A DNA stretch of 64,000 nt from Bdellovibrionota bacterium (GTDB taxonomy: Bacteria > Bdellovibrionota > UBA2428). Under the pieces are notes generated by a model. It saw nothing but the letters and a program-made list of their open reading frames with translations, searched no databases and was not told where the DNA came from. Made by a program: the position numbers and the translations under genes. The stretch spans positions 6,364 through 70,363 of the forward strand of contig DATLIP010000010.1 of NCBI GenBank assembly GCA_035539375.1, written 5' to 3'. Below, in pieces: positions 9,922-13,035 of the stretch. Numbering within the stretch: position 1 is the stretch's first letter; each line of letters starts with the position of its first letter.

Positions 9922-10839
9922 CTAAGAGGCCTGCGTGAGTGACATCAAAATCTGCCCCAGCAGCACCACAAAGAGCGCTGGGGCAAAACAAAAGTAGAGA
10001 GGCACGAGATTCCAGTAGGCGGATTTTTCCGCACACTCCTCTAGAACTTTTTGCATCCAGCGCCGGTAGATCTCTCCATAATTTTTAAGCAGCAGGGACG
10101 TGGGCAGGCCCTCGGCGGCCGCCTGTGCAAAGTGTGTGAGAATCTCGTGGTCCATGGGGTCGAATCGCGCAAAATCTTTGCTTAGAGGCTCGGGTGCGCT
10201 CTCTGCTGTACGCAGCGCTCGCGCGACGATGTCGACCCGCTCGCGAAGGGCACGCGGCACGGCCGAAGAAAGCTCGCACCAAAGCTGAGATTGCGCGAGC
10301 GCCTGGGCCGGCGTCATTCCCCACTCGATGAGTGTGCCCACGTAAAACCATAGCAGCAGCCATTCGAGACGCCACAAGTGGCTTTCGATGTGACGGCGGA
10401 TGCGAGACAAGATCAAAAAACCAAGCCCTGCTAGTGCGAGAGCGATGAGATTTGTGGGCGAAGCGAGGGGCGCGTCCATGACAAAGCTCAGTGCAAGGAT
10501 GGCCGCCACACTCACCAGCCCCAGCACTCTCGATTGGATTTTGGCGCCTAGGCCGTGGCGGCGCATTTGGCTGAGCGAATAGATCTGCATCTCAATAAGC
10601 CGCCCGAAGGCCTCGATGCCTGCGCGAGGCGGGATCTGTCCGCGTGTGATGGCCTCGCGCAGCCACACCCATTGGCGCGAAAGCTGGCGCCCCACACGCG
10701 GAGATTCGCGCGGTGAGCGCAGAGCGGCCTCGAAGGTGCTGCCCATGGCGACGCGCAGGGCGAGGTGTTCAAAGGCGCGCTGCAGTTTGCGCAGCTCTGC
10801 GATGCGATCTGGGTGGGGGCGCCAGAAGGATTTTTTCAT
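9922..10839 (-). CDS. Polytopic inner-membrane protein, probable T2SS-F/TadB-TadC-like platform
   Basis: Start MKKSFWRPHP (ATG 10839) forms an ATGA overlap with the ATPase stop. Two helical soluble segments (MGSTFEAALRS..., WGMTPAQALAQSQ...) are each followed by hydrophobic helices (VLGLVSVAAILALSFV, LIALALAGLGFLIL, WNLVPLYFCFAPALFVVLLGQIL). The assignment rests on layout and operon position, not on strong motifs. Confidence 0.45.
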   Translation of the reverse strand: MKKSFWRPHPDRIAELRKLQRAFEHLALRVAMGSTFEAALRSPRESPRVGRQLSRQWVWLREAITRGQIPPRAGIEAFGRLIEMQIYSLSQMRRHGLGAKIQSRVLGLVSVAAILALSFVMDAPLASPTNLIALALAGLGFLILSRIRRHIESHLWRLEWLLLWFYVGTLIEWGMTPAQALAQSQLWCELSSAVPRALRERVDIVARALRTAESAPEPLSKDFARFDPMDHEILTHFAQAAAEGLPTSLLLKNYGEIYRRWMQKVLEECAEKSAYWNLVPLYFCFAPALFVVLLGQILMSLTQAS

Positions 10840-11768
10840 GTGCTTACCCGGAACACGCGCGTGCGCCGGCGCGCGGTGGCGCCCTCGAGGCTGATGAGCA
10901 CCACCCAGTCCCAAGCGGCTGAAGCCATGGCGATGGAGTCGTTCGTCGCGAGGTGCACCAGATTGCGATAGCGTTCCAGAGCCTGTGCCATGGTGGAGGC
11001 GTGCATGGTGCACATCACGCCGCGGTGTCCACTCTGCAGGGCGTGCAAAAGTCCGCGGGCTTCAGGACCGCGACACTCTCCGAGCACAATGCGGTCAGGG
11101 CGCATGCGCAGCGATTCGTAAACAAGTTGCTCAAGGGTCCACGTGGTGCCCTCCACGCTCTCGAAACGATTTTGCCGGGAGCGCAGGCAAAAGGACATGG
11201 CGTTGGGCGCACGCAGTTCTGCAGAATCTTCGAGAATGGCGACGCGTTCGTTCGTGGGCACGAGTTGCAGGAGCGAGCGCAAGAGCGAGGTTTTGCCGCT
11301 GCCGGTGGCACCGCAGACGAGAATCGAGTCGCGCTCGCGCACCGCGCGCTGCAGATCTTCGAGCTCGCTCGGCAAAAAACCAAAATCCTCCAGCGAGGGC
11401 GGCGGCGACTCCATGTCGAGGCGTCGCAGAGTGATCAGGGTGCCCGAACCCGAGAGCGGCGGCATCACCACGTGGGCGCGAAACGAAGTCACGCCGCCAA
11501 AAGATCCCAGCTGCGCATCGAGAGAGGGGTGGCGAGGGCCGAGCGTGACGCCCGCAGTTTCGGCGATGAGGTGAGCAATTTCTCGTGTGAAATGCTCGAG
11601 CGTGGCTAGGTCAGCGCTCTCGCCGCGGTGCCAGTGCCCGTGTCGGTGGTAGATGAGCCCGTTCTCGCTCGAGATGCTGATGTCTTCGGTCTGTGGATCT
11701 CGAAGCTGTGCCCAAAACGCACGCTGCAAGCGCGCCAGGGCGGAGCTCGGCTCAGGGATTTTTTCCAT
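10836..11768 (-). CDS. Type II/IV secretion ATPase (CpaF/TadA/VirB11-like, GspE superfamily)
   Basis: Walker A ILVCGATGSGKTSLLRSLL; Asp box/Walker B region VAILEDSAEL; LRMRPDRIVLGECRGPEA; His box SGHRGVMCTMHAST. Start at MEKIPEPSS (ATG 11768) overlaps the secretin stop by 17 nt. Confidence 0.85.
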   Translation of the reverse strand: MEKIPEPSSALARLQRAFWAQLRDPQTEDISISSENGLIYHRHGHWHRGESADLATLEHFTREIAHLIAETAGVTLGPRHPSLDAQLGSFGGVTSFRAHVVMPPLSGSGTLITLRRLDMESPPPSLEDFGFLPSELEDLQRAVRERDSILVCGATGSGKTSLLRSLLQLVPTNERVAILEDSAELRAPNAMSFCLRSRQNRFESVEGTTWTLEQLVYESLRMRPDRIVLGECRGPEARGLLHALQSGHRGVMCTMHASTMAQALERYRNLVHLATNDSIAMASAAWDWVVLISLEGATARRRTRVFRVST

Positions 11769-13035
11769 AGCGCTTCCAGGGCCTCGTGATCTCTCCGGCA
11801 TCGATGGGAGTGGACCAACGGGGGGTGATAAAAAACCAAATTTCGCTCTGGTCTTCGCGATCGCTGCGCGAATGAAAAAGGCTCCCCAAGAGCGGCAGCG
11901 CGCCCAGTCCCAGGCCACCTTCGCTCGAACCTCCGCGCCGCACTTGTACCATGGAGGTGAGCAGTGTGGTTTGCGACATGGGCAAGTGGAATTCGCTCTT
12001 GAGATCGCGACGTATCATGGCGGGAACGCCGCCCATGCCGTTGCCGTAGTCGGGCTGCGAGTATTCGATGTCAATCGTGGTGGCGATCTCCTCGCCCAGG
12101 GGGGAGGCGTCGGATCTTGGGGTGAGGAGGATTTTTAATCCGTAGGCTTTCCACGAAGTTTTGGCACCAAAAGCCTGCGCATCCTGCACGGGGATTTCGC
12201 CTCCGCTGTTGAACTCGGCCACCTTTCCGGGCACCGTGCGCAAGCGGGGCGAGGCTAGCAGACGTCCCGATTGGTGAGCCTGCGAGTAGAGGGCCGTGAG
12301 GTTCATCCCCGAGCCTTCTCGGGCGATGGAAAAACCGTCGCGTGCCTTTGCCACGCCTTCAAGACCGAGGGCAGTGGCCGAGGAACGCGAAAATTCGAAG
12401 AGATCGATTTTGAACTCGATGGTGCTCTCGAGGGGCACGCCGTGGGAACGCAGAGTGGAAAAAGGGGCAAGCGCGCCGAGGCGAGCTTTGGCTTTGGCGA
12501 TTTGGCTCGCGCCCAAATTCCAAACGAGGCGTCCCTCTTGGGGCGCGACTTGTGCGAGCGAGAGACCCGCGCTCTGGAGGGACGGGGCGAGCGTTCGCAG
12601 CTCGGATTCGAGCGCTTCGCTGTGCTCGGCCGCCAAACGGTCAAATCCGCAGCGCTCGAGAGCCGCAAGACTAGTCGCGGCCGAAGTCACGACCAGCGCT
12701 CCGTCGGCGCGCGCCCGTAGGGAGTCCTGCCATTGGGGGCAGCGTCTGAGCGCGCGAGCGTTGGCCGTGGTGGTGAGCACCGCGTGCTGTACGCCCGAGT
12801 TTCCTTCGAGGCCATGCACAAAGGCTTCGCCCGCCTCCGCGCGAGCCACGAGCAGCACGTGGGCGCGGCTCAAAGGCTGCGCAGTGATCAGCTTGGCTTC
12901 GGAGAGCCAGAGCTCAGATCCGGAGACGCGCACGCGCGCGGGCTCTCCGGGAGCTAAGATCAATGTCGAGGCGAGAAGGAGAAGGTGGGGGTCTAGTGTC
13001 ATATCACCTGACCCAAGCAAAATGCCTGCCACCAA
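11752..13035 (-). CDS. Secretin (CpaC/RcpA/GspD-type outer-membrane channel)
   Basis: C-terminal secretin domain: GGEIPVQDAQAFGAKTSWKAYGLKILLTPR ... GGVPAMIRRDLKSEFHLPMSQTTLLTSMV ... GLGALPLLGSLFHSRSDREDQSEIWFFITPRW. An N-terminal signal-like MTLDPHLLLLASTLILAPG offers an alternative start at 13002. Confidence 0.85.
   Translation of the reverse strand: MVAGILLGSGDMTLDPHLLLLASTLILAPGEPARVRVSGSELWLSEAKLITAQPLSRAHVLLVARAEAGEAFVHGLEGNSGVQHAVLTTTANARALRRCPQWQDSLRARADGALVVTSAATSLAALERCGFDRLAAEHSEALESELRTLAPSLQSAGLSLAQVAPQEGRLVWNLGASQIAKAKARLGALAPFSTLRSHGVPLESTIEFKIDLFEFSRSSATALGLEGVAKARDGFSIAREGSGMNLTALYSQAHQSGRLLASPRLRTVPGKVAEFNSGGEIPVQDAQAFGAKTSWKAYGLKILLTPRSDASPLGEEIATTIDIEYSQPDYGNGMGGVPAMIRRDLKSEFHLPMSQTTLLTSMVQVRRGGSSEGGLGLGALPLLGSLFHSRSDREDQSEIWFFITPRWSTPIDAGEITRPWKRYGKNP

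Follow-up and report, generated by a model that had tools for sequence, protein, structure and literature searches.

The Tad/Flp systems of Aggregatibacter, Caulobacter and Pseudomonas are built on a secretion ATPase (TadA/CpaF), two platform proteins of the inner membrane, TadB with TadC, plus a secretin (RcpA/CpaC). Stand-alone secretin-ATPase modules and dispersed tad genes exist in the Bdellovibrionota: in Bdellovibrio bacteriovorus the tad genes are scattered over six loci, which include a 'duplicated rcpA-tadA module', and deletion of this pair, rcpA2-tadA2, whose expression is unlike that of the core tad genes, leaves predation unimpaired (10.64898/2026.07.08.737194). These loci show no obvious gene for a canonical TadV prepilin peptidase, and a supplementary western blot presents preFlp1 co-expressed in Escherichia coli with PilD and with two PilD mutants (10.64898/2026.07.08.737194); PilD, the peptidase of the type IVa pilus (T4aP), was tried on the Tad prepilin preFlp1 because the tad loci hold no TadV gene. 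Tad machines have also been adapted to predation in predatory 'delta-proteobacteria', as in the Tad-like Kil system of Myxococcus, which is involved in contact-dependent killing of prey (PMC8460266). Here we analyze a stretch of 64,000 nucleotides from a Bdellovibrionota bacterium of the UBA2428 lineage (assembly GCA_035539375.1, contig DATLIP010000010.1, positions 6,364 to 70,363), hereafter called the window, which carries a three-gene operon, or module, coding for a secretin, a short ATPase and a compact platform protein. On balance we consider it probable that the three genes specify the central parts (motor, platform and pore) of a reduced filament machine of the Tad type (type IVc-like), for which other loci provide the prepilins and a peptidase, and that the operon has been inherited vertically in an uncultured Bdellovibrionales-like lineage.

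The operon and its presumed control region are laid out as follows (aa, amino acids; T2SSF, the platform domain family named after T2SS, the type II secretion system):

11752-13002, minus strand: gene of the RcpA/CpaC-type secretin, 416 aa from the ATG at 13002
10836-11768, minus strand: gene of the short TadA/CpaF-type secretion ATPase, 310 aa
9922-10839, minus strand: gene of the compact T2SSF-type inner-membrane platform protein, 305 aa
13003-13116: short intergenic region that separates the secretin gene from a divergent ADP-ribosyltransferase gene, presumed to contain the operon promoter

An earlier note on this DNA, made from the letters alone, had described three tightly coupled minus-strand open reading frames (ORFs) with both operon boundaries inside the window, a secretin recognizable by its C-domain, a short ATPase of about 310 aa with intact Walker A, Asp and His boxes and a single platform protein of roughly 305 aa, and had remarked on the lack of pilin, prepilin peptidase and accessory genes. 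All of this has been confirmed, and only the start of the secretin gene has to be corrected. In the DNA as read directly, the secretin gene runs 17 nucleotides into the ATPase gene, past its ATG (11752-11768), while the ATGA at 10836-10839 contains both the stop of the ATPase gene and the start of the platform gene. Both ends of the operon lie inside the window, because the convergent gene on one side, which has homologues, ends at 9917 and the divergent gene on the other, which matches PF03496, starts at 13117. The earlier note had taken the longest secretin ORF, 427 aa from a TTG at 13035; this version is absent from the public record, in which the gene is called from the ATG at 13002, and the TTG version probably carries 11 codons too many. 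The promoter region shows no sigma-70 consensus site, an absence that says little for this phylum, and terminator-like sites occur only at chance level. The GC content of the operon is slightly raised (0.61-0.62 vs about 0.58). In a search of sequence runs, the window sequence was present in soil metagenome DNA runs and in no RNA run.

The ATPase matches the T2SSE domain (PF00437) with an E-value of 5e-34, above the curated cut-off, and its catalytic boxes can be read without difficulty: Walker A GATGSGKTS, Asp box ILEDSAEL, the Walker B/Glu box RPDRIVLGECRG and His box GHRGVMCTMHA, all of them invariant in an alignment of 21 clade members. Its closest match in the PDB is Caulobacter CpaF (1.4e-26), followed by VirB11. 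The best NCBIfam model is that of the TadA family, TIGR03819 (5.8e-51), which scores below its cut-off (173.7 vs 373 bits), as do the second and third, VirB11 and TrbB; the models of PilB, PilT and GspE score far lower still. The protein consists of an N2-like and a catalytic domain, and the N-terminal extension of CpaF is missing. With its relatives it belongs to a sharply delimited clade: about 30 short proteins, 287-310 aa long and with identities of 38-63%, beyond which the scores fall to generic CpaF. In a scan of genome contigs with the clade alignment, the matches listed were generic CpaF loci of at most 43% identity, which served as controls. An approximate neighbor-joining tree sets the module clade, a sister lineage and ATPases of Silvanigrellaceae off from actinobacterial TadA and from the generic CpaF of proteobacteria.

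The full name of TIGR03819, 'TadA family conjugal transfer-associated ATPase', raises the question of whether the operon might encode a device for DNA uptake or DNA transfer, to which one could add the weak matches of the secretin to the competence secretins HofQ and PilQ and the presence of helicase-nuclease genes within a few kb. We regard this as highly improbable, given that all scores, the 173.7 bits of the ATPase among them, are far below the family cut-offs, that no ComEA, ComEC, relaxase or coupling protein is encoded nearby, and that the proximity of the helicase follows the general conserved synteny of the region and is not specific to the module.

The platform protein matches T2SSF (PF00482) with an E-value of 1.3e-8 over residues 167-294, above the curated cut-off, and the same domain is recognized in 41 of the 56 members of its family. 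The model of it made with AlphaFold2 (AF2) is all-helical, with a predicted local distance difference test score (pLDDT) of 81, and together with hydropathy it suggests a cytoplasmic helical bundle I (residues ~8-95), a transmembrane (TM) hairpin (101-147), a cytoplasmic T2SSF bundle II (155-275) and a third TM helix (278-303); in this model, the topology is of the PilC/GspF type. Foldseek gave one notable hit, itself weak, to the model of PilC in the T4aP machine of Myxococcus (3jc8_Ca; E 5e-3, probability 1.0, TM-score 0.36), and a profile of the platform found no sequence match in the PDB. The earlier note would have been refuted by a platform without a T2SSF-like fold; judging by the PF00482 match and by PilC as the top structural hit, the protein does have such a fold or profile.

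The make-up of this small protein is suggested by its halves. Aligned with each other by hhalign, they reveal an internal repeat (probability 91.6%, E 8e-7); aligned with TadB and TadC sets that were assigned by gene order in 14 loci, the N-terminal half is closer to TadB (1.5e-12) than to TadC (7e-6), and the C-terminal half closer to TadC (4.5e-12) than to TadB (2.5e-6). The hidden Markov model (HMM) of the platform family also matches the genes 3' of cpaF, i.e. TadB and TadC, in generic Tad loci (1e-16 to 1e-5), with the top score for the gene that follows tadA in loci of Microbacteriaceae, where the alignment extends across both halves. The additional N-terminal TM helix of canonical TadB and TadC is missing in the family. 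The protein thus reads as a compact TadB-TadC fusion with two T2SSF-like repeats and a PilC-like topology, and since it would comprise both a TadB-like and a TadC-like repeat, one platform gene suffices and no second one is required. It resembles PilC and GspF in the succession of bundle, TM hairpin, bundle and TM helix and in having two T2SSF-type repeats in one polypeptide; it differs in being about 100 residues shorter, in the truncation of the first repeat and in a sequence nearer to TadB/TadC.

Two word-indexed searches gave six platform proteins each, and it was an exhaustive HMMER profile search of 1.84 billion cluster representatives that revealed the family: it yielded 115 clusters at E<=1e-3, of which 63 remain at E<=1e-10, a number that makes it a small one in a database of this size. 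The stronger hits (E<=1e-13) are mostly proteins of 260-310 aa matched nearly end to end. Those members whose source was checked come from metagenomes or metagenome-assembled genomes (MAGs) and carry either no public name or that of 'hypothetical protein', and for several relatives of the window the precomputed Pfam field of the platform is blank.

The secretin matches PF00263 with an E-value of 5e-20 over residues 253-406, above the curated cut-off, and its best sequence matches in the PDB are PilQ, a secretin of Acidithiobacillus and RcpA. In the AF2 model (mean pLDDT 68), an N-terminal beta domain is followed by two small alpha/beta domains of the ring-building type and by the barrel core, at about residues 205-408 in the numbering of the 427-aa version; Foldseek retrieves secretins from the PDB with E-values down to 9e-14, among them pIV as a distant structural match. 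The T2SS-T3SS_pil_N domain (PF13629) is typical of CpaC/RcpA. Pfam did not detect it in the secretin of the window itself; at the N-terminus of the homologue in locus L089 it scores 29 bits, above the cut-off, and in other homologues it is weak. The N-termini of the clade secretins (compared for the window and for L001, L003, L005, L087-L089, L093, L099, L101, L103 and L106) share an arrangement of 5-12 residues without Lys or Arg, a short hydrophobic stretch, part of which AF2 places in a beta strand, and an SPS/APG site followed by a [HNEQ]P motif. That these secretins lack a signal peptide was considered and rejected because of the hydrophobic stretch and the SPS/APG-type sites that follow it; going by the sequence, they probably carry an atypical one. 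The secretin of L091, from the sister lineage, has a canonical signal peptide.

Taken together, the module resembles the Tad/Flp systems in an ATPase closest to CpaF/TadA, in the RcpA/CpaC-type pil_N domain of its secretin family, in a platform whose halves match TadB and TadC profiles, and in the presence of a single ATPase without a separate retraction motor. It differs from them in having one platform protein of 305 aa where these have TadB and TadC, in an ATPase of 310 aa that lacks the N-terminal extension of CpaF, in NCBIfam scores that all stay below the family cut-offs, and in the absence of Flp, TadV, TadZ/CpaE, RcpB/C, TadD and TadE/F/G at the locus or within 64 kb. Of the features that define a Tad system it thus possesses the TadA/CpaF-type ATPase and the RcpA/CpaC secretin (pil_N being seen in homologues), and at the level of the locus and window it lacks two platform proteins, Flp and TadE/F encoded alongside, TadV/CpaA and the accessory proteins. 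Because of the single platform and the lack of Flp, TadV, TadZ, RcpC and TadD, it should be regarded as a variant of the Tad kind rather than as a strict member.

Other systems were compared as well. The T2SS is marked by a GspD with N0-N3 domains, a GspE with an N1E domain and a zinc site, a GspF of about 400 aa, the pseudopilins GspG-K and GspC/L/M; the NCBIfam scores of the module for GspD, GspE and related models are far below the cut-offs, and neither pseudopilin nor GspC/L/M genes were found in the window. The T4aP is marked by the motors PilB and PilT, by PilC, by the PilMNOP alignment complex and by a PilQ with AMIN domains; here the PilB, PilT and PilQ models score weakly, and no PilMNOP genes were found in the window. 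Type IV secretion systems of the VirB11/TrbB kind have neither a secretin nor a T2SSF platform, and no VirB or Trb genes accompany the module. It differs from the export systems of filamentous phages (pIV and pI) in the ATPase, which is of the T2SSE and not the Zot type, and in a housekeeping context without prophage. Actinobacterial TadA-family systems of the 'helicase/secretion neighbourhood' type (TIGR03819) provide the best NCBIfam match of the ATPase and the best score of the platform HMM; however, they belong to monoderms and have no secretin, the ATPase scores well below their cut-off, and the neighbor-joining tree keeps the module apart from them.

Through homologues of the ATPase, six independent contexts of the module were found besides the window (L001, L003, L005, L087, L088 and L089), with secretins of 403-431 aa, ATPases of 291-310 aa and platforms of 291-305 aa, and with the tight coupling of the genes retained according to their coordinates. 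A degenerate DNA pattern for FRAHV...ITLRR, which matches all loci of the clade and none of 80 generic Tad loci, revealed 15 module loci in a metagenome collection; a second pattern, for PDR...GECRGPEA, was dropped as not specific to the clade. The order secretin-ATPase-platform is kept in the seven contexts and the 15 metagenome loci wherever the contig permits, and it holds down to 38% identity of the ATPase. One clade locus belongs to a MAG named 'Bdellovibrionales bacterium'. No other Tad or type IV pilus (T4P) genes were found near the module in the six contexts related to the window. The neighbourhood, too, is conserved: ald and a NUDIX gene are present in five of the six contexts and rpsA in four, and the usual slot of the module is between ald/NUDIX and a block comprising genes for an SH3 protein, a response regulator and rpsA.

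Its preservation in such a housekeeping neighbourhood argues that the module is old and under selection, and the fact that about 20 related loci keep the same gene order, without further Tad or T4P genes adjoining, argues that it is not a product of rearrangement. As judged by sequence comparison, then, the module is an old, selected, self-contained unit and no fragment of a rearranged Tad locus. The earlier note had proposed that the three-gene synteny be sought in relatives, and had conceded that its interpretation would fail if these always kept the genes within a complete Tad or T4P locus; about 20 metagenome-derived loci share the order, and every related locus examined is the bare module. 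One might still see in the operon what decay has left of a once complete Tad locus, or an export cassette of mobile or phage origin, in either case without a present role in the cell, and the absence of accessory genes, the raised GC content and a divergence faster than that of the neighbours (18-50% identity of the platform vs 65-92% of rpsA in the same loci) would agree with that. It is nevertheless very hard to reconcile with three intact ORFs and invariant catalytic residues over about 20 loci, with the same housekeeping position in most contexts, and with an ATPase that is T2SSE rather than Zot and is adjoined by no integrase, repeat or phage genes. A phage or mobile origin was rejected on account of the conserved synteny and the non-Zot ATPase.

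In a subclade (L003, L089, L094, L099, L101 and L106), a protein of about 380 aa, absent from the window, is encoded in the same orientation as the secretin and just upstream of it. This protein comprises a canonical receiver domain and a C-terminal domain of about 260 aa of no known type, without a ParA/MinD domain, and it may be a dedicated regulator of the module. Its gene was located at these coordinates:

L003, 7615-8745: receiver-domain protein
L089, 5617-6777: receiver-domain protein
L099, 3344-4486: receiver-domain protein
L106, 3166-4296: receiver-domain protein

The immediate neighbours of the operon in the window are less constant than its wider surroundings:

9312-9917, plus strand: gene of a lipoprotein-like protein, 201 aa, with homologues in L001 (59% identity) and L089 (34%)
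13117-13923, plus strand: gene of a secreted ADP-ribosyltransferase, 268 aa, matching ADPrib_exo_Tox (PF03496, 7.9e-12)

What lies between the genes of the platform and of the SH3 protein varies: in the window, as in L001 and L089, the slot is occupied by the lipoprotein-like protein of 201 aa, in L003 by a secreted protein of 139 aa and in L087 by a pilin-like pair. The slot upstream of the secretin gene varies to the same degree. The ADP-ribosyltransferase, whose gene points away from the secretin operon and is separated from it by some 80-110 nucleotides, weakly resembles XopAI and has a canonical signal peptide, MNAKRCLFVVFGMLLSATSAPALQ, as well as an intact R-S-E catalytic set (ELYRNE, FLSTTLG and YEQEY). 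The earlier note had asked whether the synteny in relatives extends to this toxin; none of the ten related loci compared has a match to the gene, and a functional link was rejected on that ground.

Several observations weigh against a filament machine supplied from elsewhere. A regular expression for class III signal peptides found no prepilin-type ORF in the whole 64-kb window. Among the clade loci (193 kb), 16 of 17 likewise contain no pilin-like ORF by the same expression; 46 of the 80 generic Tad loci used as a positive control do. A Pfam scan of 36 ORFs of the window (a few at 58.8-62.2 kb being left out) revealed no peptidase A24/prepilin peptidase and no TadZ, RcpC, TadD or TadE/F/G. 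The N-terminus of the secretin has no basic n-region, and for the possibly analogous rcpA2-tadA2 pair of B. bacteriovorus, which predation does not need, the authors themselves suggest accessory or 'Tad-unrelated' functions (10.64898/2026.07.08.737194). The scan also found no PilMNOP, pseudopilins or GspC/L/M among the ORFs covered, and TadZ/CpaE, RcpC/CpaB, RcpB, TadD and TadG are found neither in the window nor in the flanks of related loci.

The reading as a filament machine is favoured, on the other hand, by a pair of paralogous prepilin-like proteins in L087, the sole pilin-like finding beside any module locus examined, whose genes directly adjoin the platform gene:

L087, 4569-6050, minus strand: prepilin-like protein, 493 aa
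L087, 6191-7873, minus strand: prepilin-like protein, 560 aa

Both have no Pfam match and show a canonical type IV prepilin N-terminus, ...GSLQG|FTMVELLMVITTVGIISIV (G|FTMVE).

The consistent absence of pilin genes beside the module, in the window and in 16 of 17 clade loci, could also mean that it is a dedicated exporter that works without pilins, in which the ATPase and platform gate or drive the passage of periplasmic cargo through the secretin and no filament is formed. Candidate cargo would be the products of the variable flanking genes, such as the ADP-ribosyltransferase with its signal peptide, and both flanking slots do vary and often hold secreted or unknown proteins (besides the ADP-ribosyltransferase, the 201-aa lipoprotein and the 139-aa protein of L003). 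Yet no flanking gene is conserved with the module, the prepilin-type proteins of L087 adjoin it, and we know of no machine of the type IV filament superfamily (T2SS, T4P or Tad) that works without pilin-type subunits, so that such an exporter seems to us unlikely. In its boldest form, in which secretin, TadA-like motor and mini TadBC platform would make up a self-sufficient three-protein trans-envelope machine with neither pilin nor prepilin peptidase, the idea is decidedly doubtful.

We therefore return to the filament machine with parts encoded elsewhere, for which the dispersed tad genes of B. bacteriovorus offer an analogy that favours supply in trans. A hexameric TadA/CpaF-like ATPase would dock on one compact, two-repeat platform in the inner membrane and, by turning or pumping it, would bring about the assembly, and perhaps the retraction, of a short prepilin-type filament; the RcpA-like secretin would serve as the outer-membrane channel, and the subunits and the prepilin peptidase would come from other loci. 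We infer the supply of pilin and peptidase in trans and the assembly of a filament, and with them the biological role of the module.

A described counterpart is tad locus 2 (rcpA2-tadA2) of B. bacteriovorus HD100, which likewise comprises a secretin and a TadA-type ATPase apart from the main tad locus in a member of the Bdellovibrionota, with parts shared between pilus systems. Compared by description only, it differs in consisting of two genes, to which the module adds a dedicated platform. A possible if less probable explanation is that the module serves the cell's main Tad or T4aP machine as an auxiliary or alternative sub-assembly, much like the rcpA2-tadA2 paralogues. It would be a set of secretin, motor and platform specific to a stage or condition, and another locus would provide the alignment, pilotin and pilin components into which it plugs. 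The duplicated rcpA-tadA of B. bacteriovorus, with its distinct expression and lack of a predation phenotype, would fit this (10.64898/2026.07.08.737194), as would the grouping of the ATPases of the module, the sister lineage and Silvanigrellaceae away from generic CpaF in the neighbor-joining tree. On the opposite side, no sampled member of the platform family comes from a named cultured organism, and the module, encoding its own platform, is more complete than a plug-in pair.

The sister lineage of the ATPase, which adjoins metK in L090, L091 and L092 and is also present in L075, from a MAG of Bacteriovoracaceae, has modules of a different composition:

L090, 6538-9997: sister module
L092, 5523-9014: sister module
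L075, 4190-8353: sister module
L091, 5523-8346: sister module

They combine a longer secretin (488-569 aa) and a short ATPase with a soluble protein of about 340 aa in place of the platform (L090, L092 and L075); this protein is without TM helices, matches nothing in Pfam or the PDB, and is conserved between L090 and L075. In L091, a membrane protein of 137 aa stands in its stead. The layout of L090, L092 and L075 may be a closer counterpart of HD100 locus 2 than the module is. Kil of Myxococcus is likewise a Tad-derived apparatus, but it is a multi-gene one with pilins, two platform proteins and accessory parts, and a killing role for the module has no evidence here.

Elsewhere in the window, an ORF of 575 aa on the minus strand (47017-48744) combines a NuoB-type (Oxidored_q6) and a NuoD-type (Complex1_49kDa) domain with about 150 residues between them without assignment; it is a fused complex I subunit, possibly NuoBCD. 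A gene of the deoxyhypusine synthase family (39573-40553, minus strand; PF01916, 6e-40), here in a bacterial genome, probably codes for a homospermidine-synthase-like enzyme. Four large minus-strand ORFs have no Pfam match: 25194-29843 (1549 aa), 40556-43633 (1025 aa), 52009-54048 (679 aa) and 16830-18281 (483 aa).

Orphan secretin-ATPase modules have already been described in the Bdellovibrionota; what is new here is the conserved minimal architecture and the fused mini-platform. With the module, a minimal and conserved core of a Tad-type machine is defined, and its compact two-repeat platform offers a natural test of what share of TadB/TadC or PilC it takes to couple an ATPase hexamer to filament assembly. 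Should the machine prove to be free of pilins, no member of the type IV filament superfamily would be smaller; it would be a new device for secretion or gating in Bdellovibrio-like bacteria, and its function would represent a new principle of secretion. The module also offers a hypothesis for the unexplained 'extra' secretin-ATPase modules of predators such as B. bacteriovorus.

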